From Patescibacteria group bacterium (GTDB taxonomy: Bacteria > Patescibacteriota > Minisyncoccia > Minisyncoccales > RBG-13-36-15): a stretch of DNA of 64,000 nucleotides. Numbering within the stretch: the stretch's first letter is position 1; every line of letters begins with the position of its first letter. Below, in pieces: positions 48,186 through 60,917 of the stretch. The DNA lies in NCBI GenBank assembly GCA_018609195.1, contig JAHCSE010000001.1, positions 9,559-73,558 on the forward strand, in the 5' to 3' direction. The position numbers and the translations under genes are program-made. The notes under the pieces were generated by a model that worked only from the letters and a program-made list of their open reading frames with translations, made no database searches and was not told where the DNA came from.

Positions 48186-48202
48186 TAATACGGATCCTTC
48201 TA

Positions 48203-48979
48203 TTACAAATAATCAAGTATCCGCTCGTAGTCTATAAATTGCAAAGCTCTAAACCCCCAGGAAATTAAGAGCACCATCTTATTAGTAAGAAGCAGGATAC
48301 CAAGGAGGATAAGGAATGCGCCTCCGATAATTTCTACCCAGTGTAAATATCGAGTTATTTTTGTAATCGCAGAGGATACTGCTCCAATACCAGCGGCAAT
48401 AAGTAAAAAAGGGATAGCTAACCCCATAGAGAAAACGAAAAGGAGAAAGCCGCCCTGAAAGGCGGTAGAAGAAGTCGAAGCAAGAAAGAGAATTGCACCA
48501 AGAATTGGTCCCACACATGGTGTCCAGCCAGTGGCAAAAGCTGAACCAAGTAGAGCTGAACTCAATGGATTTCCGCGTCTGACTTGAAAAGGGAGTCTTA
48601 CCTTTCGTTCTTTGCTGAGGAATGAGGTAAGAAAAGGAATCCTGAAAATTCCTAACATAGAGAGACCGAAAAGTATGACAAATACGCCGGCAATACGCGT
48701 GAGCCAAATGCGATAAGCGCCAAAGGCTTGCCCTGCAAGACCTGCTAACGTTCCGAAGAGAACAAAAATAACCGTGACTCCCGCCATAAAAAATAGGCCG
48801 TTCAAAAAAATCTTCCTGCGGGCACTTCTTGCTTTTGTAGGATCTCTGAGTTCTTCAGCAGAGGTTCCACTGATAAAACCTAAATAAGCCGGTATAAGAG
48901 GAAGAGTGCAAGGGGCTAAGAACGTAATAATGCCGGCAATAAAAGCCGGGATAATGAGGGCAATTACTTCAGGGGTCAT
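48203..48979 (-). CDS. ccdA: cytochrome c-type biogenesis/thiol-disulfide transporter CcdA
   Basis: Canonical motifs LAPCTLPLIPAYLGF and WTPCVGPILGA; 258 aa. Confidence 0.85.
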   Translation of the reverse strand: MTPEVIALIIPAFIAGIITFLAPCTLPLIPAYLGFISGTSAEELRDPTKARSARRKIFLNGLFFMAGVTVIFVLFGTLAGLAGQAFGAYRIWLTRIAGVFVILFGLSMLGIFRIPFLTSFLSKERKVRLPFQVRRGNPLSSALLGSAFATGWTPCVGPILGAILFLASTSSTAFQGGFLLFVFSMGLAIPFLLIAAGIGAVSSAITKITRYLHWVEIIGGAFLILLGILLLTNKMVLLISWGFRALQFIDYERILDYL

Positions 48980-49506
48980 AATGCAAAAAGTTGTTGTACC
49001 TTAGATTTCATCTCATCAAAGGTCATGGGGCCCCGCTTATGGAAGAGGATATTTCCTTCTCCATCAACAAAAATTGTCTCTGGCATAGAAAATCCTCCGA
49101 TTGAGCGATAAAAAGAATCTTTGGGATCGAGGAGGAAAATAAGGGTATCTGTCACACCGAGATCATCTGTATAGCTCTTGGTTAGCTCAAGAGATTCAGC
49201 TCGGTCAATTGGAATAATGGTGATTTTATCTCCAAATTCCTGTTGGAGTTTTGCAAAATCCCCCAGTTCCTTAACGCAGAATGGACACCACACTGCCCAG
49301 GAATTTACAATAATGGATTTGCCTTGGAAATCGGAAAGAGCCACTGTGTTGCCACTATAGTCTTTCAAACTGAAATTGGGCGCTGGCTCAGGTTTTGGGG
49401 GCGTAAGAGTTTGAGTATCCTGTTTCTGACCCCCGCCCGAAACTATAAAAAAGATGATAATGGAGGCAAGAATAATAATTCCCACCACTACAAAGATTTT
49501 ATTCAT
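48976..49506 (-). CDS. TlpA/ResA-like membrane-anchored thioredoxin
   Basis: VNSWAVWCPFCVKE CxxC motif and N-terminal TM helix. Overlaps ccdA by 4 nt. Confidence 0.82.
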   Translation of the reverse strand: MNKIFVVVGIIILASIIIFFIVSGGGQKQDTQTLTPPKPEPAPNFSLKDYSGNTVALSDFQGKSIIVNSWAVWCPFCVKELGDFAKLQQEFGDKITIIPIDRAESLELTKSYTDDLGVTDTLIFLLDPKDSFYRSIGGFSMPETIFVDGEGNILFHKRGPMTFDEMKSKVQQLFAL

Positions 49507-49562
49507 AATAAATGCTAAAGCGAACCCACGGATGTATCACATTGCCGTGGGTTTGCTAAGAA

Positions 49563-49721
49563 TTATGCACATCCACCGCAGCCCCCTTTTTCTTTATGAG
49601 TATGTCCGCACTTCGAACATTTTTCCTGACGCTCCGCTCCACAGCAGGTCCCAGGGCTTTCAGTAGACTCTGAACCACAGCCGGGACAAATATGTGTTTT
49701 TTCGGTTGTTTCTTCTGCCAT
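49563..49721 (-). CDS. 8-Cys micro-protein 1 (52 aa), unannotated
   Basis: Own translation: MAEETTEKTHICPGCGSESTESPGTCCGAERQEKCSKCGHTHKEKGGCGGCA. Paralog of 51189..51338. Confidence 0.6.
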   Translation of the reverse strand: MAEETTEKTHICPGCGSESTESPGTCCGAERQEKCSKCGHTHKEKGGCGGCA

Positions 49722-49778
49722 ATTTTATATTTTTTGAAAATTTAATTTTACAATTTTTTCGACCTTTTCTTGGTTGTA

Positions 49779-50834
49779 TTATTTATACAATTCGGTATCT
49801 GGATAAGCTGCCACCCACGAAAACCAAAAAGCAGAAAAGGGATTGATGCGCTCCTCGCTGCCATCTGGCAATATCTTAAACATCCTGATCACATCAAGTT
49901 CTTTATCAGGCCGCAAGATAATAGTGGTATCTTGAAAAACATCCTCTACAGTGCCTTTTTCTTTTACTGCATCAATGTGGTATGCCTTAGCTTCTCCATT
50001 GATAACAATCCCGAATACAAAAGCATCATTAGGAAGTCGGGTATCAGTAGGTTTGGCAAGGGATAATGCCAAGTTTGTAGTTGAAAAATAATCGCCATAA
50101 GGCTTTGAGCCATAAAAGCGAAGAGCTCCCGTATCTTTGGAAAGAATTTCGCCATCAGGATGTAATTTTTTCCAGTTGCCGTAGCGCATCTGGTCTGAGG
50201 GCAATACTTTGAGTTTTGTTCCTGTCATTTCTCCTACAGCGGCTTCTCCCAAAATTTGCGGCCACAGGCTATCTGTCTTCCTATCATACATCACCAAGTT
50301 TGCCTTCCAGAGTTTTCCTGAGGTTCCAAACTCAACTCTCTCCCCTTTTACCAGAGGATCAAATATATACCCAGTGAGACAGAGAGGACAATAAGTAACA
50401 AGAACGCGTTCTCCCTCCACAATATCATTGACGATTTCATGCCAGACAGTAATCTGATAGGGATAAAAACGGTGAGTGTTTCCTCTCGAAAAAGCAATAC
50501 CTGGCTCTTCATCACTTAACCACTGATTTGCCTCTGTAATAGAAATAAACTTTGGATTATCAATAGAGGGAATGCCGTCTTTGGGCGGACCTCCACTAAT
50601 AATTTCTTCCAAAGGTATACTATGTTTAACTCCATCCGTCACCATAATTTCTTTTTCGGTTACCACAATTTCTTTTTCTCCTTCTTTGGTGATAATTTCC
50701 TCTTCTATGAGAACTTTTTCCTCTCGTGTTTCTCCTTTCGGCAGTTCAAACCTTTCTTTTCCAAATCTTTGGAAAATTAAAAAACCTACTCCTAAAAGAA
50801 TTAAAACTAAAATAGCAATATTAATAATCTTCAT
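49779..50834 (-). CDS. DUF3179 domain protein (membrane-anchored)
   Basis: GGPPKDGIPSIDNPKF motif, WHE...VTYCPLC, and an N-terminal TM helix. Confidence 0.7.
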   Translation of the reverse strand: MKIINIAILVLILLGVGFLIFQRFGKERFELPKGETREEKVLIEEEIITKEGEKEIVVTEKEIMVTDGVKHSIPLEEIISGGPPKDGIPSIDNPKFISITEANQWLSDEEPGIAFSRGNTHRFYPYQITVWHEIVNDIVEGERVLVTYCPLCLTGYIFDPLVKGERVEFGTSGKLWKANLVMYDRKTDSLWPQILGEAAVGEMTGTKLKVLPSDQMRYGNWKKLHPDGEILSKDTGALRFYGSKPYGDYFSTTNLALSLAKPTDTRLPNDAFVFGIVINGEAKAYHIDAVKEKGTVEDVFQDTTIILRPDKELDVIRMFKILPDGSEERINPFSAFWFSWVAAYPDTELYK

Positions 50835-50844
50835 TGGAATCTTT

Positions 50845-51099
50845 TTACTTTTTAGCCCACTGTTTTACCCTTTCGTAATCAACTTCGCCACAAATGAAAT
50901 CTTCGTTTGCAGTGTTGAAGAAAAATGGTACTCCCATACACCTCCCCTCCGCATATTCTCTCATTTTTTGAGCACTGTCTTTATTATGCCACACTTCGTA
51001 TTTTTCAACTTTTACCCCTTCTTCTTTCTCTAATCTCTCTATCAAAGGGTGCATATTCATACAATGAGGGCATTCTTCCCCGTAAAATTCCAAAAGCAT
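50845..51099 (-). CDS. small thioredoxin/glutaredoxin-like protein
   Basis: 84 aa; FYGEECPHC CxxC; GVPFF cis-Pro region. Confidence 0.75.
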   Translation of the reverse strand: MLLEFYGEECPHCMNMHPLIERLEKEEGVKVEKYEVWHNKDSAQKMREYAEGRCMGVPFFFNTANEDFICGEVDYERVKQWAKK

Positions 51100-51188: not shown

Positions 51189-51338
51189 TTAAGCTGCGCA
51201 ACACTCTTTGGCGTACTTACCCGAACCACATCCACAAACCTTTTCTCTTGATGCACCACAACACGTTCCTCCTTCTTCACCCTCGGGAGGTGTACTGCCA
51301 CAGCTTTGGCATTTGTACTGGTCTTTTTCTTCAGCCAT
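51189..51338 (-). CDS. 8-Cys micro-protein 2 (49 aa), unannotated
   Basis: Own translation: MAEEKDQYKCQSCGSTPPEGEEGGTCCGASREKVCGCGSGKYAKECCAA. Confidence 0.6.
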   Translation of the reverse strand: MAEEKDQYKCQSCGSTPPEGEEGGTCCGASREKVCGCGSGKYAKECCAA

Positions 51339-51465: not shown

Positions 51466-51780
51466 TTATTTTAATAATCCTTTAATTTTTTCAGCAAGGG
51501 AGTAGCAAGCCATTCTCCCAATCTTCACCCTTCTTACCAAACCTGCTCTCTCAAGTAAACTCAATTGATGGGAAACAGCGCTTATACTAATATGTAAAAT
51601 TTGTGAAAAGTCAGTAGGACACAATTTTTTATAGTGTTTGAGCAAAAAAATAATTTTAAGGCGGGTGGGGTCAGAACAAAGATAATAAAAACTGCTTTTT
51701 TCTTTAATTTTTTGAGAAAGTTTTGCTAATTCTCTCTGGGAATTTTTGATTTCTCTTCCCTTAAGAAGCATTAATTGCAT
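51466..51780 (-). CDS. ArsR/SmtB-family transcriptional regulator
   Basis: 104 aa; winged HTH (DPTRLKIIFLL...ISISAVSHQLSLLERAGLV). Confidence 0.8.
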   Translation of the reverse strand: MQLMLLKGREIKNSQRELAKLSQKIKEKSSFYYLCSDPTRLKIIFLLKHYKKLCPTDFSQILHISISAVSHQLSLLERAGLVRRVKIGRMACYSLAEKIKGLLK

Positions 51781-51798
51781 ATTTGCTCAACTATTTAA

Positions 51799-51826
51799 AT
51801 ATTATCTGGATAAAAAAACTTGTCAA
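51799..51826 (-). promoter_or_regulatory. promoter of ArsR-1 with TTATC-N2-GATAA inverted repeat in the spacer
   Basis: Minus strand TTGACA-agtttttttatccaga-TAATAT. Confidence 0.5.
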
Positions 51827-51941
51827 GTGGTAGGTTGTGGAAAACTCAACCTTAAGAAATAAAAAGCCACTTTAAAACTTGGGGGTTTAAACTTTTGAAT
51901 CAACATGTTTTTGTCTTATTACTCTTTTTCCTTAAGATTAA

Positions 51942-52799
51942 CTACGGCAGAATTTGAAGTAGCCGTTCGCTTAACGTGATTACAATATTAAAGGCACCCA
52001 TAAGGATGAGGAAAAAGCCTCCTAATAACCTGATAGGTTTCATTTGCCTAACCAATGTTTGTGTCAAGGATTCTCTCGCAAATCCAGCTATAACTGAAAG
52101 TGATATCATGAGCAAAGCCATAACAGTACTTGCAAGTATAAAGACAGTTAAAGCAGAGGATAACCCGCCGCCACTCAAGGCAAAAAGAGAAAGTCCACCA
52201 ACTAAGGGAGCTACACAACCTATCCCAGCTAAAGTATATCCAAATCCAAACATAAAAAATTTACCAAACATTCCGCGGCCTCTTTTCGATATTTCAGTGC
52301 CAAGATGTTCCACTTTTCCTAAACTGACGAATACTTTATTGGTTACCAATGCCAACCCAAGTCCTATCAACAAAACACCAATGATTCGTCTAAACCATAG
52401 CAGTGCCGTTGTTCCTGGTTTAATAAAATTAATAAATGTTTCTCCCAAAAGTCCGATGACAATTCCGAAAAGAATCATAAACGCTAAAAGACCTAATGCA
52501 GCATAGAATCCATTACGAATCAGTTTTCCTCGAGAAAGTACTCGCCCTCCCCCACTCACCACCTCTGTTTGATAAACCAAATAAGATGGGAGGATCGGTA
52601 AAACACACGGATTAAAGAAAGCCGCTATCCCGACACCTAAGCCAGCGACAATAAGCGTAACCAAGGATATATCCGATGGTTTCATAAAACTTTTTGTAGC
52701 CGAAAAGAGGTAAAATCCGATAACTGCTATAACAATAAAAAACACTGCTAAGCCGATGTAAAGTAGAACAGGATGAGTTTTTGTCTGAGTATTATTCAT
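51942..52799 (-). CDS. CcdA/DsbD-like thiol-disulfide transporter paralog
   Basis: 285 aa; FFNPCVLPILPSYLVY and GIGCVAPLVGG motifs. Confidence 0.72.
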   Translation of the reverse strand: MNNTQTKTHPVLLYIGLAVFFIVIAVIGFYLFSATKSFMKPSDISLVTLIVAGLGVGIAAFFNPCVLPILPSYLVYQTEVVSGGGRVLSRGKLIRNGFYAALGLLAFMILFGIVIGLLGETFINFIKPGTTALLWFRRIIGVLLIGLGLALVTNKVFVSLGKVEHLGTEISKRGRGMFGKFFMFGFGYTLAGIGCVAPLVGGLSLFALSGGGLSSALTVFILASTVMALLMISLSVIAGFARESLTQTLVRQMKPIRLLGGFFLILMGAFNIVITLSERLLQILP

Positions 52800-52896
52800 A
52801 GGTACTATTTGAAGTTATAAGCTATTAGTTAATCATTTTAGAACTCGACCTTTGATTTCTTTTTCTTTAACTAATGCCCTCGTGGTTATAATAGGT

Positions 52897-53064
52897 TTAT
52901 TGATGCCTGTCCTGTAGGACGTGCTTATTAATTTCGAGATTGCAGCTTTTGTGTTCTCTGCACCAAGCCTCACATTTCTCTGCCCACTCTTCATCTTCAT
53001 ACTTATATCCACATTCCTCGCATTGATATAATTCTTTGTTTTCTTGTTCTATTTTCTTAACCAT
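52897..53064 (-). CDS. Cys-rich zinc-ribbon protein (55 aa), unannotated paralog of 57515..57700
   Basis: Own translation: MVKKIEQENKELYQCEECGYKYEDEEWAEKCEAWCREHKSCNLEINKHVLQDRHQ. Overlaps the upstream gene by 8 nt. Confidence 0.65.
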   Translation of the reverse strand: MVKKIEQENKELYQCEECGYKYEDEEWAEKCEAWCREHKSCNLEINKHVLQDRHQ

Positions 53065-53332
53065 TTTGGGGAGATAATTCTTTTAATTTTTCTACTAACT
53101 TATTTTTATCAAGCCCTCCAACTGCAAAAAGCTCTCCATTAACGACAATACCAGGCGAAACCATAATACCGTATTCCTGAACCATTTTCTGGCCTTGTTC
53201 AGAAAACATATCAATGTATTCAATTTCCGCATCTGGAAATTGGGGTTTAATTTCTTCTTCTAAAGTTTTCTTTGCCGTGGCACAGTGACTACACCCTGGT
53301 GTTGAAAGTTCTTGAATTTTTATCTTATTCAT
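53057..53332 (-). CDS. small thioredoxin-fold protein (redox-active disulfide protein 2-like)
   Basis: 91 aa; TPGCSHCATAKK CxxC; SPGIVVNGE. Confidence 0.75.
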   Translation of the reverse strand: MNKIKIQELSTPGCSHCATAKKTLEEEIKPQFPDAEIEYIDMFSEQGQKMVQEYGIMVSPGIVVNGELFAVGGLDKNKLVEKLKELSPQNG

Positions 53333-53882
53333 ATTCTCTTAAGGCTTGGAAAGAATTATCTAATATATTATTGACCTTATCCCAATATCCTTGACTGATA
53401 GCATCATTCAACTCCTCTTCAATAAATACTTCGAGAGAGACTCCTCGTTCTGCAAGTCCTTGAGCGAGTATGCTTAATTTGAATTCAATTTCTTGAGGAA
53501 TTTCTGTTACTTGCCCCCGAGAAGTAGTGCCGGTATATGCCTGGTCAGCAAGGATACGAGCAGAATATGCTTGAAAAATTGAAGCATCTATAATTTGTTC
53601 TTTCGTAATGCTCGTAGAATCATATATTACCCAACCAGAATCAGTTCTCGGGTCAGCATCTGCTTGCACAACTCCTGGTATGCCCAATAAGGAATTTACC
53701 ACACTTGAACGACATCCCAGACAAAACATATTGTTAATCTCCAAATCCACCTTCCGAAGGTTTGCTTGGACAACATCTCCTCCAAGAGAAGTATCCTTAC
53801 TGCTGCCACCGAATAGAAACACTCCTCCGATAATTGCCCCCACAATAATTATTGACAATGGTATGAGAAGACTCTTATTCAT
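53325..53882 (-). CDS. membrane-anchored heavy-metal-associated (HMA) domain protein
   Basis: N-terminal TM helix; NNMFCLGCRSSVVNSLLGIPGVVQADAD is an MxCxxC ferredoxin-like metal-binding domain. Confidence 0.65.
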   Translation of the reverse strand: MNKSLLIPLSIIIVGAIIGGVFLFGGSSKDTSLGGDVVQANLRKVDLEINNMFCLGCRSSVVNSLLGIPGVVQADADPRTDSGWVIYDSTSITKEQIIDASIFQAYSARILADQAYTGTTSRGQVTEIPQEIEFKLSILAQGLAERGVSLEVFIEEELNDAISQGYWDKVNNILDNSFQALREYE

Positions 53883-53905
53883 AGAGGTTTAATAATAGTG
53901 TAAGT

Positions 53906-54075
53906 CTACTACATCCCCCAAATAAAAAATATAGTAAACATCCACATGCTTGTTAAAACTAATATTCCGCCTGCAACCTTTTTCATTGTTTCTGTTTTTC
54001 CAATCATTGTTTTGAAAAAAGTGTGCTTACCCTGTCCGATAAATACGGTAACTGCAATAAGAAATAGGGCTTGAA
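53906..54075 (-). pseudogene. orphan 3'-terminal fragment of a CcdA-like gene
   Basis: About 93% identical (about 12 mismatches in ~170 nt by eye) to 55384..55553, the 3' end of 55387..56214. No upstream coding part remains. Confidence 0.8.
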
Positions 54076-54077
54076 AT

Positions 54078-54200
54078 TTAAAAACCCGCAGCTCGTTCCA
54101 TGACTTCAGCCACTTGTTCTTTTGTAATGTTTTTTGCTATTTTGATTACACTTTCGCAGCAGGTGCAATCTTTTATATGGATTATAGTTAGCGTTGTCAT
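54078..54200 (-). CDS. 40-aa ORF resembling a truncated HMA domain
   Basis: Own translation: MTTLTIIHIKDCTCCESVIKIAKNITKEQVAEVMERAAGF. May be a gene fragment. Confidence 0.3.
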   Translation of the reverse strand: MTTLTIIHIKDCTCCESVIKIAKNITKEQVAEVMERAAGF

Positions 54201-54235
54201 AATATGTGTTTAATTAGTTATTATTTTTCTATACA

Positions 54236-55357
54236 TTACCTTACTGAAGTATATTCTCCGAGCAGACCTTTTTTCGATAATACTATCTGCCATTGCTGGG
54301 CTTTTCGAGCCCGGAAGGATCCTGCAGCCGAGAGAAGATAGTATTTCCACATTCGATAAAATCTATCCCCATATTTAGTGCGCAATTCATTCCAGTGCGA
54401 ATTAAAGTTGTCCCACCAGTGCATAAGAGTCGTATCGTAGTGAGTACCAAAGCTATGCCAGTCCTCAAGAACAAACAGCCCTTCCGCTGCCTTTGCGATC
54501 TGTTTGTATGACGGAAGCATTGTATTCGGAAAAATATATTTCAAATACCACGGATCCAATCCAATTGAGGACGTACTAACACCTCCTGCGTCTAAGAGAA
54601 AAAGTCCATCATCGCTAAGCATGGAGTGAACCTTTTCCATGTAGAGTCGGTAATTTTTGTATCCGACATGCTCAAACATCCCTAACGAAACAATATGGTC
54701 AAACGTTCCATCAATATCACGATAATCCTGTAGACGAGTTTCTGTCGGCAAATCACCGCGCTGTGCGTTCGCATAGTCCGCCTGCTCTTTCGACACCGTA
54801 ATCCCTACACATTGAGCCCCGTAGCGCTCAGCAGCAAAGTTGATAAAGCTGCCCCACCCTGAGCCAATATCGAGAATTCGATCGCCTTTTTGTATTCCAA
54901 GTTTCCTGCACGTAAGGTCGAGTTTTAATTCCTGTGCCTCGTCAAGTGTTTGCGCATTCTTCCAGTACCCACATGTGTAGGTCAGTCGTTTGTCGAGCAT
55001 TGCCTTAAATAAGTCATTGCCAATGTCATAGTGATCTTCTCCAACCTGAAACGCGCGCAAACGCGGCATGTTGATGAGCTTTGCCTTGAGATAATTCCAT
55101 ACCAATACTGGATTTATGCGTGCCTGTTTTTCAAGTCTCGAGCGAAGAACTTTGTTAAAAAATTCATCAAGCTCTTTCACGTCCCACCAGCCGTCCATAT
55201 ACGACTCACCAAGCCCGAGAGAGCCCTGGCTTAGGACACGACCGTAGAATTTCTCGTTGTGCACTTGAATATCCCATGGTCGATCGCCATTGATTGTAAT
55301 ACCTGCCTCCGAAGCTAATTGTTCAATAACTACTTTAGGTGTAAACGGCATATTCAA
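54236..55357 (-). CDS. cfa: cyclopropane-fatty-acyl-phospholipid synthase
   Basis: 373 aa, colinear with classic Cfa (GSLGLGESYMDGWWD, VLDIGSGWG, GMFEHVG, YDTTLMHW). Visibly GC-richer than its neighbours. Confidence 0.88.
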   Translation of the reverse strand: MNMPFTPKVVIEQLASEAGITINGDRPWDIQVHNEKFYGRVLSQGSLGLGESYMDGWWDVKELDEFFNKVLRSRLEKQARINPVLVWNYLKAKLINMPRLRAFQVGEDHYDIGNDLFKAMLDKRLTYTCGYWKNAQTLDEAQELKLDLTCRKLGIQKGDRILDIGSGWGSFINFAAERYGAQCVGITVSKEQADYANAQRGDLPTETRLQDYRDIDGTFDHIVSLGMFEHVGYKNYRLYMEKVHSMLSDDGLFLLDAGGVSTSSIGLDPWYLKYIFPNTMLPSYKQIAKAAEGLFVLEDWHSFGTHYDTTLMHWWDNFNSHWNELRTKYGDRFYRMWKYYLLSAAGSFRARKAQQWQIVLSKKGLLGEYTSVR

Positions 55358-55386
55358 TTATTTTTCTACAAACGTTAGAAAGATTA

Positions 55387-56214
55387 CTACATTCCCCATA
55401 TAAAGAATATAGCAAACATCCACATACTTGTTAAGACTAATATTCCGCCTGCGACCTTTTTCATTGTTTCTGTTTTTCCAATCATTGTTTTGAAAAACGT
55501 GTGCTTTCCCTGCCCGATAAATACGGTAACTGCAATAAGAAATAATGCTTGAGCAAGACTAAAAATCAGAAAGCTTGAAATACTGACTAAAAATTCTCCA
55601 CCCACAAGAGGGAAGAATACCAATGGTAAAAAGATGGGCAAGAAACACATCAATCCTCCAGCCCCATATACAATGCCAAAGCCAAAAAGATTAACGCTTT
55701 GTGAACGCCCACGACTCATTTTATTAACTTTATCTCTGAAGGAAGAAAGAAAATTAATATTGATAGATTTGCCACGCAAAAAAGCAATGCCGATAAACAA
55801 AATGAGAATTGCAACGGCAAATTTCAATTGGCTAGCATAGGAAGCCAGAAATGTCCCGATAGTCGCAAAAAGTAAACCAAGGACAATAAAGAAGCTGAAT
55901 ACACCGAGTGAGGCAATAATGCCAAGCTTGATACTTCTTTTAATTGGCGAGTGTTTTTCTTCTCCCTCGTCCATTCCAAGATAAAAAGACATATAAGCCG
56001 GAAGCACTCCTAAGGAACAGGGTCCAAAATTCACAATAAGCCCGGCAATGAAAGCAAAGCCCAAAATACCAAGCGTGCTAAAGGCAGCAAGATTGCTTGT
56101 CTGGGGAATAATAATCCCATACAGAACTTTCCAGCCAAAGATACTGGCAACCACAAAAATAGTAAGTGCTGCCAATATCCAAATGCTATAAGTTACTATT
56201 TTTGACTTAATCAT
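55387..56214 (-). CDS. CcdA/DsbD-like thiol-disulfide transporter paralog
   Basis: NFGPCSLGVLPAYMSFY motif. Start set at MIKSKIV (4 nt after the stop of the upstream gene) rather than the track's 56286. Confidence 0.68.
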   Translation of the reverse strand: MIKSKIVTYSIWILAALTIFVVASIFGWKVLYGIIIPQTSNLAAFSTLGILGFAFIAGLIVNFGPCSLGVLPAYMSFYLGMDEGEEKHSPIKRSIKLGIIASLGVFSFFIVLGLLFATIGTFLASYASQLKFAVAILILFIGIAFLRGKSININFLSSFRDKVNKMSRGRSQSVNLFGFGIVYGAGGLMCFLPIFLPLVFFPLVGGEFLVSISSFLIFSLAQALFLIAVTVFIGQGKHTFFKTMIGKTETMKKVAGGILVLTSMWMFAIFFIWGM

Positions 56215-56218
56215 AAAA

Positions 56219-57076
56219 TTAAGGAAAAAGAATTTTTGTAAATGGAGTGATGAAAACAGAAGAAAGAATAAGGAAAATTCCGACAATAAGAAGTAGAACG
56301 CCGCTTACTCTTTTGATAGCAACGGTTGATTGGCGAAGACTTTGGAGTAAAGTTTCTTTGGAAAAAGCAATGAGCAGTGATACAACAATCATCAGAAGTG
56401 CCATTACTAATGAATAAACCACAAAAGCCAGAAACGCATCTGAGAAGCCACCTTGAGATAGTGCAAATACAATGAGCCCACCCATGATTGGGCCTCCACA
56501 ACCGATACCAAGTAGTGGATAGCCAAAACCATAGCCATAGAGTTTTCCAAATCCCGCTTGTTTTTCTTCCGGCAATGATTTCGGATGCCATAAATGCCCT
56601 AATCTCCCAAAAGGATTCCCTCTCCCTGTGGCGTGGCTAAAACCAAGATACAGAAGAAACACTCCTACAATGCCACGCAGCCATCTTACTGGTATGCTTG
56701 GGTTTTCTCCTGCAAGCCCTAATGATTTCCCAAAACCAGCTCCTAAAATACCAATGCCAATACCGAGTAAAAGATTAAAGGTGATAAGACCTAATGCTGC
56801 TGCTAATCCAGAGAGGAGTAGTTTCGTTGCTGACTTTTTACTTTCACCTTCTTTTGTTGTGTAGTATTGAGCAAAGTAGGCAGGAAGCAATGGAAAAGCA
56901 CAAGGGTTAAAGAAACTTGCCACTCCTGCAACTACCGCAACAAATAGTAACCCAAAAGCAGCACCTCCCTTCATTATGTTGATAACAAACCAGATAAATA
57001 ACCCATACCCGCCTGCTACCAAAACAAAAATAATAAAAAAAAGAAAAATGAGCTTGCTCCAATCTTTTAACGACAT
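56219..57076 (-). CDS. CcdA/DsbD-like thiol-disulfide transporter paralog
   Basis: 285 aa; FFNPCAFPLLPAYFAQY and GIGCGGPIMGG. Overlaps ArsR-2. Confidence 0.72.
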   Translation of the reverse strand: MSLKDWSKLIFLFFIIFVLVAGGYGLFIWFVINIMKGGAAFGLLFVAVVAGVASFFNPCAFPLLPAYFAQYYTTKEGESKKSATKLLLSGLAAALGLITFNLLLGIGIGILGAGFGKSLGLAGENPSIPVRWLRGIVGVFLLYLGFSHATGRGNPFGRLGHLWHPKSLPEEKQAGFGKLYGYGFGYPLLGIGCGGPIMGGLIVFALSQGGFSDAFLAFVVYSLVMALLMIVVSLLIAFSKETLLQSLRQSTVAIKRVSGVLLLIVGIFLILSSVFITPFTKILFP

Positions 57077-57369
57077 AGCTTTTTGCAGAATTTGTTAATA
57101 TGCTTATCCATTAACCCAAGAAGCGGCTTTGTTGTTTCTTTGTTTAGAGTATAAATGCGTTCTTTTCCATTTCTTTCCATGCTTACAAAACCACATTTTT
57201 GAAGCCGTCCTAAGTGATGCGAGACAAGACTTTGCTCATAGCCAAGTTTCTTGGCAATAGCAGTTACATTTAGCTTTCCTTTTCGAAGCAAATGGATAAT
57301 ATCCCACCTTGTTTTATTCCCCAGGGTTTCAAAAAAGATTTTATATGGTTCGCGAATAATTCTCTTCAT
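57067..57369 (-). CDS. ArsR/SmtB-family transcriptional regulator
   Basis: 100 aa; LGNKTRWDIIHLL...QSLVSHHLGRLQKCGFV winged HTH. Confidence 0.82.
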   Translation of the reverse strand: MKRIIREPYKIFFETLGNKTRWDIIHLLRKGKLNVTAIAKKLGYEQSLVSHHLGRLQKCGFVSMERNGKERIYTLNKETTKPLLGLMDKHINKFCKKLCR

Positions 57370-57376
57370 AGTATGA

Positions 57377-57404
57377 ATTATATTTCATATGAAACTTATG
57401 TCAA
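57377..57404 (-). promoter_or_regulatory. consensus promoter of ArsR-2 with palindromic operator; transcript probably leaderless
   Basis: Minus strand TTGACA-taagTTTCATATGAAA-TATAAT. The 12-bp perfect palindrome fills the spacer, and the -10 box ends only 7 nt before the ATG. Confidence 0.65.
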
Positions 57405-57457
57405 GTGTATTTTTCCACAAGAGTTCTCATTGTTTTGTTTTGTATAGAGATATAAAA

Positions 57458-57476
57458 AACCGCCTTCTCGACGATT
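57458..57476 (-). terminator. family terminator, copy e (variant)
   Basis: aaccgccttctcgacgatt. Downstream of 57515..57700. Confidence 0.5.
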
Positions 57477-57514
57477 GATTAAGATTTCAGCCTACCCTGT
57501 TGCTCCCTATTTCT

Positions 57515-57700
57515 TTAGCTCTCTGACTTCTCAAGGAAAGCAGGTTCTTTCACAGCGTGCTCGGTAATCTCAAGGTTACAGCTTTTGTGTTCCAAGCACC
57601 AAGCCTCGCATTTCTCTGCCCACTCTTTTTCTCTATAAGTAAAACCGCACTCTCTGCACTGGTAATACGTTTTATTGTTTTGAGTAATAACTTTTGGCAT
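57515..57700 (-). CDS. Cys-rich zinc-ribbon protein (61 aa)
   Basis: YYQCRECGFTYREKEWAEKCEAWCLEHKSCNLEI. Paralog of 52897..53064. Confidence 0.65.
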   Translation of the reverse strand: MPKVITQNNKTYYQCRECGFTYREKEWAEKCEAWCLEHKSCNLEITEHAVKEPAFLEKSES

Positions 57701-57729: not shown

Positions 57730-58107
57730 TTATTCATTACTTCTTCTCCAAAATCTAAAATTTTCTGGCCAGGCACTAATCGCTAAAGCCAAGGCTGCAG
57801 TAAATAATCCAATATCGCGAACTGTAATTGTATTAATACCAGAGACTGTAAGAACGGTGACTAAGTGCAAAGCTCCAAGAAGTGCTGCTAACCAAGTGAA
57901 GTAATCTATTAAAAGCAAAGCACCAATAATAATATCAAAAAGGGCTGTTCCAATCATTACTCCTTTTAAGGAGATTGGTAAAAGATTAGCTGCCCAGGGT
58001 TGCACGTAGCCTCCCCACCCTACTGGGTCCCGTAAAATGAGAATGCCAATCCACAAGAAAGTAATGGCCATTCCCACTCGTAATATGTGAAATGCACTTG
58101 ATTTCAT
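57730..58107 (-). CDS. DoxX-like 4-TM membrane protein
   Basis: 125 aa; ILRVGMAITFLWIGILIL N-terminus and four hydrophobic helices. Confidence 0.5.
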   Translation of the reverse strand: MKSSAFHILRVGMAITFLWIGILILRDPVGWGGYVQPWAANLLPISLKGVMIGTALFDIIIGALLLIDYFTWLAALLGALHLVTVLTVSGINTITVRDIGLFTAALALAISAWPENFRFWRRSNE

Positions 58108-58175
58108 AAATAATACTAGATTTTAAAGAATATGAACTTTATCTTCGATAAAGACCGTATAATTTTCGTTTCGCT

Positions 58176-58589
58176 TCAAATTATAAGCTCGCTAATTAAT
58201 ACAATAAGTCCCATAGCAAAAACGGTAAAGGCAGACAGTACACACCAAAAACACCAAGCTTTGATAACCCGCCATTGAAGATAGGTCAAAATGATTGATA
58301 TAACTACTCCAGCTCCAATAAGAATCTTTACCAACATATCCCAAAAGATCAGTGGTTCAACCCCAATTATCAAAAAAGCAGTGAAAAGGGAAATTAAAAC
58401 ATAAAATGTAAATCCCAAAACTTCATTATGAATACCAATAATTTTATTGTACTTACTTCCCAAGACTTCATAGCACTCCTCGCCGAAAATACAGACAGGT
58501 TCCTCTTTTGCTATTCTTTTACGAATTAAATAAACTGTCTCTGAAATACCTATGGCGGCGAGTGTGAAAAGAAGGGCATGTGGAGTCAT
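58176..58589 (-). CDS. vitamin K epoxide reductase (VKOR) family protein
   Basis: 137 aa; loop Cys pair (PVCIFGEEC) and a TM CxxC (AWCFWCV). Confidence 0.68.
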   Translation of the reverse strand: MTPHALLFTLAAIGISETVYLIRKRIAKEEPVCIFGEECYEVLGSKYNKIIGIHNEVLGFTFYVLISLFTAFLIIGVEPLIFWDMLVKILIGAGVVISIILTYLQWRVIKAWCFWCVLSAFTVFAMGLIVLISELII

Positions 58590-58594
58590 GGTTG

Positions 58595-58810
58595 TTATTT
58601 TCGCTCTTGATCACGGTGGATGAGCGTCCCTACACCAAAGGCAATGGAAACAAGTAATAATGTTATTGCGTCATTGTAAAAATCTCCTTGAGACAATCCA
58701 AGAAAAGTGCCATACGTTCTCACAATCCAAGCGCCAAAGAGCGATAATATGCCTAAAATTCCAGAAATCATGGCAACGTGGTGTAAAATTGGTGACCATT
58801 TCATATTCAT
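58595..58810 (-). CDS. small two-TM membrane protein (71 aa)
   Basis: ORF between the SPFH and VKOR genes with two hydrophobic helices. Confidence 0.45.
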   Translation of the reverse strand: MNMKWSPILHHVAMISGILGILSLFGAWIVRTYGTFLGLSQGDFYNDAITLLLVSIAFGVGTLIHRDQERK

Positions 58811-58837
58811 AGAATGTATCTAATAAATTTACGTTTA

Positions 58838-58895
58838 GGCCTGCCTGCCCCGTAGGGAAGCGAAGCTTCTCCTTCGGGGCTTAATCTTACAGGCC
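58838..58895 (-). terminator. nested GC hairpin after the SPFH gene
   Basis: GGCCTG..CCCCG..GGAAGC-GAA-GCTTCTCC..CGGGG..CAGGCC. Contains the GCGAAGC mini-hairpin motif. Confidence 0.5.
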
Positions 58896-58917
58896 ATTTA
58901 TTGTTCAATAGGGTCTC

Positions 58918-59703
58918 CTATTTTTCATTTCCCTCGTTCTTGTTCTCTTCTGGTAATTTTTTGCCAAATCTTTCAAAGGCTCTAAGAATTTCCAAAGGCA
59001 CAGCAAAAATAATCGTATTTGATTTATCAGAGCTTATATCATTGATTGATTGAAGAGTTCTTAAATGAAGGGCTCCCTTAGCCTCAGATAGAGTCCGGGC
59101 AGCTTTTGCCAGATTACCGGAGGCAATTACTTCTCCTGCGGCCTTAATAATTATTGCTCTTTTTTCCCTTTCTGCTTCAGCTTGCTTTCCAATTACCCTC
59201 TTCATTCCTTCTGGTAAAGTTATATCTTTTAATTCCACATTGAGAACTTTAATTCCCCAAGGATCGGTAGCCTTATCTATAATGCTTCTTATGTTTTCTG
59301 AAACCCTGTCTCTTTGAGAAAGGAGGCCATCTAAATCTACTTGACCTACGGCATTTCGCATTGTTGTTTGGGCTAACTGAGAAATGGCAAAGAAAAAATC
59401 CTCTACTTCCAAAACTGCCTTATCAGCTTCTTGGACTTTATAATAGATAACAGCATTAACCCTAACTGAGATATTATCCTTGGTAATTGCCTCCTGATCT
59501 GGTACATCTACCGCCTTTACTCTTAAATCTATTTTTCGATAAAACTGAACAATAGGCAAAACTATTCTCCAGCCAGGTTCCATCAAACCGATATACTTAC
59601 CCAGCATAAACTTAACTCCCTTTTGATACTGATTAATCTGCTTAATGGAGGTTAAAATAATCAAGACAATTATTGCTAAAATTACCCAACCTATATTTGG
59701 CAT
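58918..59703 (-). CDS. SPFH/band-7 (stomatin/slipin-like) protein
   Basis: 261 aa; N-terminal TM helix, KDNISVRVNAVIYYKV, and an EAEREKRAII coiled region. Confidence 0.85.
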   Translation of the reverse strand: MPNIGWVILAIIVLIILTSIKQINQYQKGVKFMLGKYIGLMEPGWRIVLPIVQFYRKIDLRVKAVDVPDQEAITKDNISVRVNAVIYYKVQEADKAVLEVEDFFFAISQLAQTTMRNAVGQVDLDGLLSQRDRVSENIRSIIDKATDPWGIKVLNVELKDITLPEGMKRVIGKQAEAEREKRAIIIKAAGEVIASGNLAKAARTLSEAKGALHLRTLQSINDISSDKSNTIIFAVPLEILRAFERFGKKLPEENKNEGNEK

Positions 59704-59723
59704 ATTTTTTTGAAGTTAATTAA

Positions 59724-60359
59724 TTATTCGACCTTTAAGGAACCCAGCATTCCATTGGCGCGGTGACCAGGGATAGCACAATAATACTCAAAGGTACCTA
59801 GCTTATCGGGTATGAAAGAGACAGTTTTCGATCCAGTACCATAGTAACCACCAGATAGTGAGTAGTTAACTCCTAGTTCATCGATAGTAAAAGTATGGGT
59901 GCCAGAGATGGAAAAGTTAATCTTAAGTTCTTGTCCTTTTTGAACCGTTGCTGAATTTGGAATAAACGCAAAGTTGCGTGCCGTCATTGAAATCTCTTTA
60001 GTTGGAAGTGGCTCAGGAGTAGGTTCAGGTTCAGGGGTTGGCTCAGGCTCTGGAGTAGGTTCTTGCATAGGTTCAGGTTCAGACTCTGGTTCTGGGGTTG
60101 GTTCGGGTGTAATCATCTGTTCTTCTGTCAGTGCTGGAGCGATTGCCTCTTCTTCATCTGGGAGAGACACCTCCTCGGGTGGACTAGGAATTTGTTCTCC
60201 TGGGGCGACTTTTTCTGGTGCTAGAGGCCCGGTTGGAGTTGGAGTTGGGGCTTGATAACCTCCTTTTAAAATAAAATATCCACCCACAATGACTGCAAAC
60301 GCCACCGCTGCAATAATAATACCCCACGTTACTTTATCCATATATTCCCTACCTTTCAA
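59724..60359 (-). CDS. membrane-anchored cupredoxin with Pro/Glu/Thr-rich linker
   Basis: C-terminal domain with GTHTF...YYCAIPGHRANGM type-1 Cu ligands. The true start may be MDKVTW (ATG ending at 60341). Confidence 0.75.
   Translation of the reverse strand: MKGREYMDKVTWGIIIAAVAFAVIVGGYFILKGGYQAPTPTPTGPLAPEKVAPGEQIPSPPEEVSLPDEEEAIAPALTEEQMITPEPTPEPESEPEPMQEPTPEPEPTPEPEPTPEPLPTKEISMTARNFAFIPNSATVQKGQELKINFSISGTHTFTIDELGVNYSLSGGYYGTGSKTVSFIPDKLGTFEYYCAIPGHRANGMLGSLKVE
60007..60108 (-). repeat. coding tandem repeat (PEPTPEPEP linker)
   Basis: ggttcaggt/ggctcaggc-type 6- to 9-nt periodicity encoding (T/E)PEP repeats. Confidence 0.7.
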
Positions 60360-60891
60360 TAAATTCTTTTATTTTATCTTCATCAAAACCATCTAAAATT
60401 TCTCTTTTGTTAAGCTTGGTTAAGATAATTTTCCCATCATAATTATTGGGAGCTAAATAAACATTGTCTGGGTATTGTTTTACTAAAGCTGTGATCTTTT
60501 CTATTAAACCTAATTTACACTTAAACTTATCACAGTTGTATTGAATGATAACTCCTGGTTTGCCTCTGCCATCGGCATGCTCTAACATGTGTTTTTGGAT
60601 GACTTCTGGTATAGGTTGCGAAAGAATGTGAGCTGGGGGTATTGCTTCTGAATGATTAAGGAGTGTCGTTGGAGGTAAATCAGGACTGCTGGTTAAAAAC
60701 CATCCTAAACCAAAAATTCCTCCTCCTATCACCAAGACAATTAAGCTTAAATTTAGTGTCTTTTTAAATCGCAGTCTCCGTCTTCCCCCCTCTTGTTCTT
60801 TTTGTCTAAGTTTTCTTTTGAGAAGTCGACGCTCTTTTTTTGTCAGTTGTTGATCCTCAACGAGAACCTTGTTTTTCTCTAATTCCTCCAT
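60349..60891 (-). CDS. membrane-anchored DUF3105-like protein
   Basis: 180 aa; basic N-terminus plus a TM helix; HMLEHADGRGKPGVIIQYNCDKFKC core. Family assignment is tentative. Confidence 0.4.
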   Translation of the reverse strand: MEELEKNKVLVEDQQLTKKERRLLKRKLRQKEQEGGRRRLRFKKTLNLSLIVLVIGGGIFGLGWFLTSSPDLPPTTLLNHSEAIPPAHILSQPIPEVIQKHMLEHADGRGKPGVIIQYNCDKFKCKLGLIEKITALVKQYPDNVYLAPNNYDGKIILTKLNKREILDGFDEDKIKEFIER

Positions 60892-60917
60892 TTTCCTTTA
60901 AGTAAAACCGGATCCTT

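Follow-up and report, generated by a model that had tools for sequence, protein, structure and literature searches.

The CcdA-TlpA/ResA and DsbD/ScsB-ScsC reductant-export pathways include a role in copper tolerance, and the Paracoccus soxR(ArsR)-soxS-soxV(CcdA)-soxW cluster, which serves sulfur oxidation, places an ArsR-family repressor beside a CcdA homolog and thioredoxins. Mercury-resistance (mer) loci of the actinobacterial type (Streptomyces lividans, Rhodococcus) encode an ArsR-family "MerR", a CcdA/DsbD-family "MerT" and a TlpA/thioredoxin-like "MerP/ORF3" as accessory proteins. Mer regulators of the ArsR type have been described (PMC3466566), and actinomycete "mercury transporters" bear CcdA and TrxA domains (PMC12195606). 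The same families in the same combination were found in the window (the whole 64-kb stretch of Patescibacteria, or candidate phyla radiation (CPR), DNA that was analyzed). Other loci are designated by L numbers. All ten ORFs of the original prediction are present at their coordinates on the minus strand. The features are as follows:

51466..51780, minus strand: ArsR1, ArsR/SmtB repressor, 104 aa (HTH_5 1.2e-12; NF033788 62.5 bits, cut-off 55)
51781..51826, minus strand: ArsR1 promoter TTGACA-N16-TAATAT (10/12 promoter match), then a degenerate class-1 operator, ATTTGAA-N6-TTCAAAT
51942..52799, minus strand: CcdL1, divergent CcdA/DsbD_TM-type protein, 285 aa, FFNPC and GIGC motifs (phmmer to CcdL2 5e-40)
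52897..53064, minus strand: Znr1, DUF7128-type Cys-rich finger, 55 aa; start overlaps the Trx3 end by 8 nt
53057..53332, minus strand: Trx3, small thioredoxin-like protein, CSHC (Thioredoxin_3 6.4e-10, 39.4 bits, above the Pfam cut-off)
53325..53882, minus strand: HMA-domain protein (MFCLGC), 185 aa, N-terminal membrane anchor (HMA 30.2 bits, cut-off 24.8)
53902..54074, minus strand: duplicated ccdL3 3' end, the cfa insertion scar (92% identical to 55380-55552; translation matches the CcdL3 C-terminus)
55387..56217, minus strand: CcdL3, third and most divergent CcdA-like protein; start 1 nt past the CcdL2 stop codon
56219..57076, minus strand: CcdL2, CcdA-like protein, 285 aa (182 homologs); start overlaps the arsR2 end by 10 nt
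57067..57369, minus strand: ArsR2, ArsR/SmtB repressor, 100 aa, Cys59 and C-terminal CKKLC (NF033788 74.9 bits)
57373..57404, minus strand: ArsR2 promoter (-35 at 57404-57399; -10 at 57382-57377)
57476-57458: terminator-like hairpin between Znr2 and ArsR2
57515..57700, minus strand: Znr2, DUF7128-type finger, 61 aa, last gene of a TM71-VKOR-DoxX-Znr2 unit, as judged from spacing
57730..58810, minus strand: genes for a DoxX-like protein (22.2 bits, slightly under the cut-off), VKOR (77 bits) and a 71-aa membrane protein

The genes, motifs and promoter of the original prediction are real; the twofold-repeat layout that it drew from them is not. ArsR1 and ArsR2 are 35% identical, CcdL1 and CcdL2 36%, and the gene orders are unlike. 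Znr2, formerly assigned to the second module, sits 29 nt downstream of the DoxX-like gene, is probably co-transcribed with it and with the VKOR and 71-aa membrane protein genes, and is cut off from ArsR2 by the hairpin and promoter. VKOR-Znr adjacency was seen again in L071, L038 and L056. The 173-nt direct repeat formed by the scar and its counterpart flanks cfa (product CMAS, above the Pfam cut-off) and indicates that cfa was inserted into one once-contiguous cluster. The locus is a single ancestral cluster, ArsR2-CcdL2-CcdL3-HMA-Trx3-Znr1-CcdL1 with ArsR1 downstream, later split by cfa; the order CcdL3-HMA-Trx3-(Znr pseudogene)-CcdL is retained in L128.

Judged by sequence, the CcdL proteins are divergent DsbD_TM members. 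A Pfam search with CcdL1 returned zero matches, and CcdL3 scored 25.4 bits against DsbD_TM (cut-off 27.1). Canonical CcdA, which is encoded in a ccdA-tlpA pair (48203-49506) that holds the sole TlpA of the window, was matched by phmmer at 1e-11 to 1e-13 (about 1e-12 for CcdL1), and both Cys residues are invariant when CcdL1-3 and this protein are aligned. The FNPC/GIGC motifs, originally attributed to all three CcdL proteins, deviate in CcdL3 (FGPC/LMCxxP), which has only 21% identity to CcdL1. A search of the PDB with the CcdL2 profile gave 5VKV (CcdA) as the sole match (E 0.0056); the same entry was the top Foldseek match, not significant, for the low-confidence CcdL2 model (pLDDT 63). Likeness to the CcdA-TlpA/ResA and DsbD/ScsB-ScsC pathways would comprise a pair of reactive Cys set in broken helices of pseudo-symmetric arrangement and, putatively, a thioredoxin that donates from inside to a thiol protein outside. 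Unlike the proteins of those pathways, CcdL falls under the DsbD_TM Pfam threshold, has an additional N-terminal helix in the model, is ArsR-controlled, and has as its presumed acceptor an HMA protein and not an apocytochrome or a DsbC-like protein.

Both repressors scored above the HTH_5 and NF033788 cut-offs, and Cys59 and the C-terminal Cys cluster of ArsR2 are kept in 16 homologs. The ArsR2 promoter, predicted as TTGACA-N16-TATAAT (57404-57377), is the sole 12/12 match in 7.7 kb. The ATG lies 7 nt past the -10 box, which points to a leaderless transcript, as had been anticipated, and this design recurs in related loci. The palindrome TTTCATATGAAA (57394-57383) does fill the spacer, but it is not the conserved operator; the element conserved across loci is a predicted ATGAA-N6-TTCAT operator (57388-57373) that spans the -10 box, and TTTCATATGAAA arises from an additional half-site upstream of it. 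The promoter-operator design was also found upstream of ArsR2-like genes in L093, L097-L099, L103, L107 and L114, and in a variant form in L082, L102, L108, L116, L121 and L138. The best match of ArsR1 was ArsR_L086 (2.3e-10), and ArsR1 is of the same class as the regulator heading the L086 MerA operon. In L086, L082 and L072, an intact class-1 operator precedes the ArsR_L086-like gene; the ArsR1 copy has 3 mismatches and is therefore regarded as putative.

Control of a CcdA-like relay by ArsR is a conserved association that holds outside this genome: of the 54 other non-redundant CcdL loci, 16 have an ArsR gene no farther than 120 nt from CcdL, and the count rises to 21 if up to 3 kb is allowed. 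MerA-like genes are near CcdL in 7 of these loci, and TlpA-like redoxins in 12. The closest ortholog of CcdL2 (85% identity) is in the CPR operon of L086, ArsR-MerA-U171-Redoxin-CcdL, in which U171 is a Cys-TM protein, the redoxin is of the TlpA type, and MerA is a true one (515 bits, equivalog cut-off 454; CVNVGC active site and C-terminal CC pair). The system had been considered impossible to name, but the same gene set is the mer locus of a Rhodococcus ruber plasmid, where genes for ArsR, a small CC-TM protein, TlpA and a CcdA-like protein are divergent from merA-merB. Within the window, that CcdA-like protein matched CcdL3 (6e-16), CcdL2 (3e-10) and canonical CcdA (6e-7), and the Rhodococcus regulator matched ArsR2 (3.6e-9) and ArsR1 (1.9e-5); its overall best match was the ArsR2-class ArsR_L084 (4e-11). 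The Cys set of this regulator (LTDCGYV, C-terminal CC) is equivalent to that of ArsR2, so Cys59 and the C-terminal cluster are common to both systems. In contrast to the actinobacterial loci, the two modules are without merA, merB, a TlpA partner or the small CC-TM protein, and they feature an HMA protein, a cytoplasmic Trx, DUF7128 proteins, three CcdL paralogs and two regulators. The modules contain no P1B ATPase. A search of the whole window for MerA, a P1B ATPase, U171 or another obvious metal sink was negative.

We read the locus, with a probability of about 0.45, as a thiol-relay island that answers soft metals, with Cu(I) and/or Hg(II) as the likeliest inducers. Metal would be sensed by the two ArsR/SmtB repressors via Cys clusters (in ArsR2, Cys59 and the C-terminal CxxxC). 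On binding metal, ArsR2 would leave the operator overlapping the -10 box, and the leaderless operon would be switched on. The induced CcdL, whose two broken helices each carry a single reactive Cys, would relay reducing equivalents from Trx3 to extracellular thiol proteins. Trx3 (matches to TIGR00411/00412 under the cut-off) carries no signal peptide and is for that reason read as cytoplasmic. In this locus, the membrane-anchored HMA protein would be the main one to accept them; it showed weak matches to MerTP, CopZ and MerP and has a predicted outward-facing topology like that of MerP or CopZ. Once reduced, it would keep binding metal, and metal-catalyzed disulfide damage would be reversed.

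It is unlikely, in our estimate, that CcdL moves metal and not electrons, such that Hg(II) or Cu(I) would pass by ligand exchange from the HMA protein (as MerP) to the CcdL Cys pair (as MerT), then to Znr or Trx3 in the cytoplasm (as NmerA), and finally to MerA or an exporter elsewhere in the genome. To our knowledge, every characterized DsbD_TM member (DsbD, CcdA, ScsB) is an electron mover. CcdL is found in MerA operons and its actinomycete homologs bear the annotation "mercury transporter", but the small Cys-TM protein that those operons encode separately (U171 or MerT-like) is the better fit for a transporter, and their TlpA-like redoxin suits the usual role of a CcdA partner. HMA genes adjoin CcdL in the window, L084/85, L128 and L137, which accords with metal transfer, as does the cytoplasmic tail with two CC pairs of the Rhodococcus homolog; CcdL is without this CC-rich tail, for which Znr could substitute in trans. 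However, import of Hg with no MerA in the locus would harm the cell.

The redox content of the region bears on another reading, in which metals are irrelevant: the ArsR proteins would use thiols to sense oxidants or reactive sulfur species, in the manner of BigR or SqrR, and CcdL, Trx and VKOR would carry out envelope thiol-redox housekeeping, to the benefit of a cell-wall-dependent episymbiont. Genes for Trx, TlpA, CcdA, VKOR, DoxX and DsbA crowd the surrounding 13 kb. Homologs 66% identical to CcdL2 occur in TusA-DsrE sulfur-trafficking contexts without metal genes; these loci may be nearer to the theme of Paracoccus sox, the sox genes being absent here. Modules of a regulator, two CcdA, DsbA and DsrE are carried on Arthrobacter plasmids (PMC6305408). 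We nevertheless judge this reading improbable. ArsR2 and ArsR_L086 do match BigR and SdpR weakly, but the BigR matches are far under the cut-off (31 vs 155 bits), the links to HMA, MerA and P1B-ATPase are soft-metal specific, and the mer-locus regulator has the Cys signature of ArsR2.

Znr1 and Znr2 (63% identity, E 4e-25) are of the DUF7128 type, a family that numbers some 2,418 clusters and keeps 5 Cys invariant (C-x2-C-x12-C-x3-C-x5-C). Znr1 scored 23.8 bits against DUF7128 (cut-off 25.7) and 1.5e-28 against the family profile. Their 33-residue core, described before as near-identical with 6 Cys, is identical at 26 of 33 positions and has 5 Cys. That the ORFs might lack homologs had been a concern; thousands were found, and the genes are real. 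The Znr model is a confident beta-beta-alpha fold (pLDDT 85.8). The four-Cys site, C-x2-C-x12-C-x3-C, may bind zinc for structural purposes only. A literature search found zero experiments on any CcdL or DUF7128 family member.

Neighbors were tabulated for 79 genomic Znr loci: P1B copper ATPases were within 3 kb in 15 (plus one fusion), a ~490-aa Cys-rich membrane protein of unassigned function was present in 25, and DsbD_TM proteins in 14. Of the 54 CcdL loci, only 4 had Znr nearby, and its membership in the ArsR-regulated unit is by adjacency only. The original interpretation therefore survives as a metal-ArsR and CcdL association, and not in making the finger a dedicated CcdA partner, as DUF7128 is tied at least as often to P1B ATPases and the membrane protein. 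The ATPase gene is immediately downstream of Znr in 6 loci and no more than 1.3 kb away in 15; in most of these the enzyme either bears CPH and an N-terminus rich in His or pairs CPC with an HMA domain. Fusions join Znr to a CPH-type ATPase also bearing an HMBD domain, and to DUF2933.

This position, upstream of or fused to the N-terminus of a P1B copper ATPase, is the usual one of copZ or an HMA domain, and Znr resembles the CopZ-CopA and NmerA/MerP chaperones in being small, cytoplasmic and Cys-rich. It differs from them in its predicted beta-beta-alpha fold and Cys spacing, as opposed to the ferredoxin-like fold of HMA. The TRASH domain of Sulfolobus MerH, another Cys-rich finger, also belongs to a mer operon under ArsR control and has a different spacing (C-x19-22-C-x3-C). 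In the soft-metal reading, Znr1 and Znr2 would be cytoplasmic metal binders acting like CopZ or NmerA; they would pick up metal entering the cell interior and deliver it to Cys-lined membrane transporters or reductases.

The ligand spacing of Znr is also identical to that of a classical C2H2 finger (C-x2-C-x12-X-x3-X), which suggests a possible nucleic-acid role, and the model is a hairpin plus helix whose closest structural matches are the DNA-binding C2H2 fingers of Kaiso, not significant at E 0.33. Znr could then be a mere neighbor in a redox island, functionally unconnected to CcdL and ArsR and perhaps a structural zinc finger; its many contexts and the separate transcription units of Znr2 and ArsR2 would agree. 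We hold this to be quite unlikely. Unlike in C2H2 fingers, the ligands are all Cys, a fifth invariant Cys-Asn is present, and the context is membrane transporters, not DNA; fusion partners are membrane transporters, never DNA- or RNA-binding proteins. The overlapping Trx3-Znr pair is conserved in L011, and a decayed Znr holds the identical slot in L128. Znr-CcdL (L132), U171-Znr (beside CcdL in L098, L103 and L118) and tlpA-Znr-ccdA (5 loci) arrangements recur across independent lineages. From its sequence and contexts, Znr resembles a chaperone for copper or mercury and is a candidate new metallochaperone.

This Patescibacteria stretch brings together putative metal-sensor repressors, divergent CcdA-type thiol-relay membrane proteins and small Cys-rich proteins that would bind metal. 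The best reading makes it kin to the accessory genes, so far little studied, of mercury-resistance operons in Gram-positive bacteria, with the addition of an uncharacterized Cys-rich finger protein.

The genes named in the original prediction were all found, on the minus strand. Its parts list was largely correct; the layout into which it had placed them was wrong. Searches of Pfam and NCBIfam confirmed two ArsR/SmtB regulators, HMA, Thioredoxin_3, cyclopropane-fatty-acid synthase and VKOR. The remaining genes of interest encode three divergent CcdA-like proteins (CcdL1, CcdL2 and CcdL3) and two Cys-rich finger proteins (Znr1 and Znr2).

Genes and elements of the cluster, in order of transcription
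57515-57700 (Znr2), minus strand: 71-aa membrane protein, VKOR, DoxX-like protein and Znr2, first in transcription order
between Znr2 and arsR2, minus strand: terminator-like hairpin and promoter
57067-57369, minus strand: ArsR2
56219-57076, minus strand: CcdL2
55387-56217, minus strand: CcdL3
54236-55357, minus strand: cfa, cyclopropane-fatty-acid synthase (Pfam/NCBIfam)
54078-54200, minus strand: 40-aa ORF with a CTCC motif, between CcdL3 and HMA, beside cfa
53325-53882, minus strand: HMA protein (Pfam/NCBIfam HMA)
53057-53332, minus strand: Trx3, a small thioredoxin-like protein (Pfam Thioredoxin_3)
52897-53064, minus strand: Znr1
51942-52799, minus strand: CcdL1
51466-51780 (ArsR1), minus strand: promoter, then ArsR1, last in transcription order

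The genes had been described as a twice-repeated module; a single cluster that was later split is indicated instead. Pairwise identities were 36% (CcdL1 and CcdL2), 21% (CcdL3 and CcdL1), 35% (ArsR1 and ArsR2) and 63% (Znr1 and Znr2). A 173-nt direct repeat (53902-54074 and 55380-55552, 92% identical), which is a copy of the ca. 55 last codons at the 3' end of ccdL3, brackets cfa and the 40-aa ORF (54075-55379). In a metagenomic contig (L128), CcdL3, HMA, Trx3 and CcdL follow one another uninterrupted, with a decayed Znr in the expected slot between Trx3 and CcdL (1510-1640; EWAEKC has become E*AEKF, the Trp codon having changed to a stop). Because the repeat flanks cfa and the order in L128 is contiguous, the ancestral order is ArsR2-CcdL2-CcdL3-HMA-Trx3-Znr1-CcdL1, into which cfa was later inserted; this insertion into a metal/redox cluster looks recent. 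Znr2 lies 29 nt downstream of the DoxX-like gene and is separated from arsR2 by the hairpin and a 12/12 promoter, and it was therefore assigned to the VKOR/DoxX unit. The overlaps of arsR2 with ccdL2 (10 nt) and of trx3 with znr1 (8 nt) suggest translational coupling.

The cluster is enclosed by an envelope thiol-redox island (46305-51099 and 57730-61613) that contains a Trx-like 371-aa protein, a canonical CcdA-TlpA pair, DUF3179, a small Trx, VKOR, a DoxX-like protein, SPFH, a cupredoxin-domain protein (59724-60359) and a DsbA-like protein (60918-61613). Metallothionein-like peptides, 49 and 52 aa long with ca. 10 Cys each, are encoded on the minus strand at 51189-51338 and 49563-49721 (for example, MAEEKDQYKCQSCGS...CCGASREKVCGCGSGKYAKECCAA); they matched no Pfam or NCBIfam family. 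At another locus (L025), a homolog of these peptides stands beside DUF3179, TlpA, Znr and CcdA.

Both regulators scored above the cut-offs for HTH_5 (PF01022, 22 bits; ArsR1 47.9, ArsR2 47.3) and NF033788 (55 bits; ArsR1 62.5, ArsR2 74.9). The ArsR2 class retains Cys59 and a C-terminal C-x3-C(-x2-C) motif; the Cys positions of ArsR1 are not conserved in its counterpart from L086, a locus with a mercuric reductase (MerA) gene. The ArsR2 promoter was as originally described: TTGACA-N16-TATAAT (57404-57377), whose spacer contains TTTCATATGAAA, and an ATG 7 nt past the -10 box. A comparison of upstream sequence covered 16 ArsR2-like genes from other loci. The conserved element is an inverted repeat, ATGAA-N6-TTCAT, centered on the -10 box and followed by TCATAC(T)ATG (L093, L097-L099, L103, L107 and L114); in related versions the repeat is ATATGA-N-TCATAT and extends over the start codon (L082, L102, L108, L116, L121 and L138). 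The leaderless design is therefore conserved. The spacer palindrome of the window arises because the left operator half-site pairs also with an extra upstream half-site. In L128, an ATGAA-N6-TTCAT operator follows the Znr pseudogene, ahead of ccdL. No other copy of the ArsR2 operator was found near the cluster in the window, and there is thus no evidence of ArsR2 control over Znr2 or over the genes from HMA to ArsR1. In ArsR1-class genes (L086, ca. 5150-5210; L082, ca. 1390-1440; L072, ca. 5640-5690), the -10 box is closely followed by another kind of operator, ATTTGAA-N6-TTCAAAT, and the regulators concerned include those heading MerA operons. The window copy, upstream of arsR1 (51781-51800), has three mismatches. 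A TGAA-N6-TTCA core is common to both operator types.

The CcdL proteins fell below the gathering threshold of DsbD_TM (PF02683, 27.1 bits): CcdL1 had no match, CcdL2 scored 18.4 and CcdL3 25.4. CcdL1 matched no family in Pfam or NCBIfam, and many CcdL2 homologs carry a precomputed PF02683 match. The two proline-motif cysteines characteristic of DsbD_TM were found in helices 1 and 4 of the pseudo-symmetric six-helix core. They are C59 (FFNPC..P) and C193 (GIGCGGP), which were invariant in 27 sequences and align with those of canonical CcdA. Using phmmer, the CcdL proteins matched the canonical CcdA of the window at about 1e-11 to 1e-13 (4e-11 to 9e-13). A profile of the CcdL2 family, for which 182 homologs were detectable (mainly in Patescibacteria), had the CcdA structure 5VKV as its sole match in the PDB (E = 0.0056). 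The AlphaFold model of CcdL2 had a low pLDDT of 63; it featured seven helices, one of them an extra N-terminal helix and two broken at Cys. Foldseek placed 5VKV on top for this model (E = 0.35, not significant), and the model was considered too uncertain to support anything beyond CcdA being the top match.

Neighbors of CcdL were counted in 54 non-redundant loci. An ArsR gene stood within 120 nt in 16/54 and within 3 kb in 21. A TlpA-like redoxin was nearby in 12 loci, a 171-aa Cys-containing transmembrane protein (U171) in eight, a MerA-like gene in seven, TusA in seven, DsrE in four, Znr in four and HMA in three. The redoxins provide a context for the predicted transfer of electrons from thioredoxin to extracytoplasmic proteins. 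In actinomycetes, proteins with CcdA and TrxA domains are entered as "mercury transporters" in a review table (PMC12195606), together with an ArsR-type MerR. That CcdL carries the metal itself, in the manner of MerT, we consider unlikely.

Close homologs of CcdL2 (65-69% identical) reside in operons of DsrE, TusA, CcdL and a 98-aa protein (L081, L088, L090-L092, L095 and L106), one of which (L081) adjoins genes for cysteine desulfurase and NifU. These sulfur-trafficking loci contained no metal genes. Such contexts fit sensors that answer oxidants or reactive sulfur and not metals, an explanation that we judge improbable. In two further loci (L084, 7381-9569; L085, 1945-4133), genes for a TrsS-like radical SAM protein (350 bits, below the cut-off) and a DVU_1556/ArsM-like methyltransferase come after ArsR-CcdL-HMA; they hint at metalloid methylation chemistry in some lineages.

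An ortholog of CcdL2 (85% identical) is part of an ArsR-MerA-U171-Redoxin-CcdL operon in L086. The MerA of this operon scored 515 bits against an NCBIfam equivalog cut-off of 454, and both the CVNVGC active site and the Cys pair at the C-terminus are present. Christakis et al. (PMC8261052) have already reported MerA from CPR bacteria; a term search of that article returned no mention of ArsR or of cytochrome c biogenesis genes, so the accessory mer genes are apparently not discussed there. Regulation of mer by ArsR is on record for Streptomyces lividans and Sulfolobus (PMC3466566). A tblastn search of plasmids with CcdL2 gave no match even at E = 10, and pMM23, a Rhodococcus erythropolis plasmid and a Streptomyces plasmid had CcdA or mer genes, never both together. 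An actinobacterial mer locus was found via MerB on a plasmid of Rhodococcus ruber: ArsR, a 108-aa CC-containing transmembrane protein, TlpA, a CcdA-like protein and an FAD oxidoreductase are divergent from merA-merR-merB. The CcdA-like protein matched CcdL3 (6e-16) and CcdL2 (3e-10) better than it did the canonical CcdA of the window (6e-7), and it has in common with CcdL an FG(I/F)GY motif ahead of the second Cys. The R. ruber ArsR matched ArsR2 (3.6e-9) and fits its class. It has an equivalent set of cysteines: LTDCGYV aligns with L-x-x-C-G-F-V, the motif of the class, and CC stands at the C-terminus where the class has C-x3-C.

From the matching families and the sequence similarity, the L086 operon is a gene-for-gene counterpart of the Rhodococcus mer type. 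The original prediction had been unable to name the system; the gene set shared by L086 and R. ruber supplies the name, and the system belongs with mer-type and Scs/DsbD-type thiol modules. The window has the ArsR regulator and the homologous CcdA-like protein of the Rhodococcus type, but the cluster lacks MerA, TlpA and the small Cys-containing transmembrane protein. Neither a MerA-like ORF nor a U171 homolog was found in the 64 kb, and Trx3 has no signal sequence, unlike the exported TlpA/thioredoxin-like protein of mer loci. In L086, the U171 gene (6919-7434) separates merA from the gene for the redoxin. The protein has two C-x2-C motifs, one transmembrane and one C-terminal, a layout that resembles those of the small mer transporters MerT and MerH. 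It matched no Pfam or NCBIfam family and was rejected as a homolog of M. marinum MerH for want of sequence similarity, the Cys layout being merely analogous. U171 also occurs in L094, L100, L103, L113, L118, L131 and L048, where Znr often follows.

Znr1 (23.8 bits) and Znr2 (20.7 bits) scored just below the gathering threshold of DUF7128 (PF23447, 25.7 bits). As ca. 40% of their closest homologs carry a precomputed PF23447 match, they were placed at the edge of that family. Homologs are plentiful: they form 2,418 clusters when grouped at 90% identity, and 841 representatives remain at 50%. In species-representative genomes, the family was found at 524 places, mainly in Patescibacteria, with DPANN archaea, Chloroflexi and a few others. 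The core has five Cys, not the six first counted, and the invariant residues are C15, C18, Y22, W27, A28, C31, W34, C35, C41, N42 and I45. The spacing (C-x2-C-x12-C-x3-C) equals that of the classical C2H2 finger, but the ligands are Cys4 instead of Cys2-His2. A confident model (pLDDT 85.8) has a beta-beta-alpha fold, for which Foldseek found no significant match in the PDB. The M-x-C-x-x-C motif of an HMA metallochaperone is present (as MFCLGC) in the 185-aa anchored HMA protein (PF00403, 30.2 bits; cut-off 24.8), not in Znr.

The context of Znr was examined in 79 genomic loci. A P1B ATPase occurred within 3 kb in 15/79 and no more than 220 nt downstream on the same strand in six; in one more arrangement (1/79), Znr and a CPH-type ATPase with an additional HMBD domain form a single fusion protein. 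The adjacent ATPases are CopB-like (CPH and a His-rich N-terminus) or CopA-like (CPC and HMA). A DsbD_TM protein was within 3 kb in 14/79, including five tlpA-Znr-ccdA operons. Znr was fused to a ca. 490-aa membrane protein (ASACPVCGS; RPCCNNSTFFQDCNHG) in 16/79 loci and lay beside it, unfused, in nine; a 204-aa Cys-rich family was upstream in 17. Fusions with DUF2933 were also common, and Trx3-Znr is a conserved overlapping pair that in L011 stands alone amid housekeeping genes. As far as gene context can tell, this is the signature of a cytoplasmic soft-metal-binding protein.

In the ca. 490-aa protein, CPVC is transmembrane, RPCCNNSTFFQDCNHG is part of an extracytoplasmic domain and GCG(V/T) is at the C-terminus. 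It is fused behind Znr in 16 genomes (L001-L008, L013, L016, L018, L019, L028, L039, L053 and L060; ca. position 6001), with the 204-aa family usually just upstream. Neither of these, nor a family designated c4, matched Pfam or NCBIfam. In two tlpA-Znr-ccdA operons (L012, 6191-6667; L014, 6164-6637), a dual-specificity-phosphatase-like gene (HCKNGHGRAPT) lies between Znr and ccdA, and one Znr homolog (P0414) has a low-molecular-weight phosphatase/ArsC-type domain (PF01451); a link to arsenate reductase is possible.

The original interpretation, a metal-sensing repressor controlling a transmembrane electron shuttle with a soluble Cys-rich partner, thus stands in part. The association of ArsR with CcdL extends beyond this genome. 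That of Znr with CcdL is rare, and the contexts of Znr point away from a dedicated CcdA partner. The genes might be mere neighbors, with Znr a structural finger in another role; we regard this account as quite unlikely.

The favored reading (rough probability 0.45) is that soft metals induce a thiol relay. Leaderless operons would be derepressed by ArsR proteins, which have Cys clusters; the CcdA-like proteins so induced would draw reducing power from Trx3 and deliver it to exported proteins with thiols, above all the anchored HMA protein; and, in the cytoplasm, the DUF7128 proteins would bind Cu(I) or Hg(II) and hand it on. Counted as weaknesses of the thiol relay are the 4/54 linkage of Znr to CcdL and the absence from the window of MerA and of any P1B ATPase. 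The newest element is the DUF7128 protein as a candidate chaperone. It may represent a hitherto overlooked class of metallochaperone or metal-binding domain for soft metals (Cu(I)/Hg(II)), a beta-beta-alpha finger with Cys4+Cys that takes the place of CopZ/HMA in Patescibacteria and DPANN archaea and docks onto proteins with intramembrane Cys (CopB- and CopA-type ATPases, CcdA-like proteins, U171 and the ca. 490-aa proteins), the mer-type CcdA-like proteins serving as its partners in the membrane for a thiol-based relay of metal; we put this forward tentatively, with the odds somewhat against it.

Since the 1990s, "mercury transporters" has been the label for the CcdA-like and TlpA-like genes in mer operons of Gram-positive bacteria, and to our knowledge no mechanism has been tested for their products. 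Our literature searches on DUF7128, on CcdA in mer operons and on mercury reductase in Patescibacteria brought up no study of the proteins described here, and no experimental study of any CcdL or DUF7128 member. The presence of the same gene set in Patescibacteria provides a compact comparative system in which to ask whether CcdA-like proteins move electrons or metal, and it brings a defined operator, a leaderless promoter and the extra partners HMA, Trx and DUF7128. DUF7128 is itself a large uncharacterized family (ca. 2,400 clusters) whose gene context mimics copZ-copA. If its members bind Cu(I) or Hg(II), they would add a metal-binding module to metagenome annotation and would explain how toxic soft metals are trafficked in ultra-small, host-dependent bacteria and archaea.
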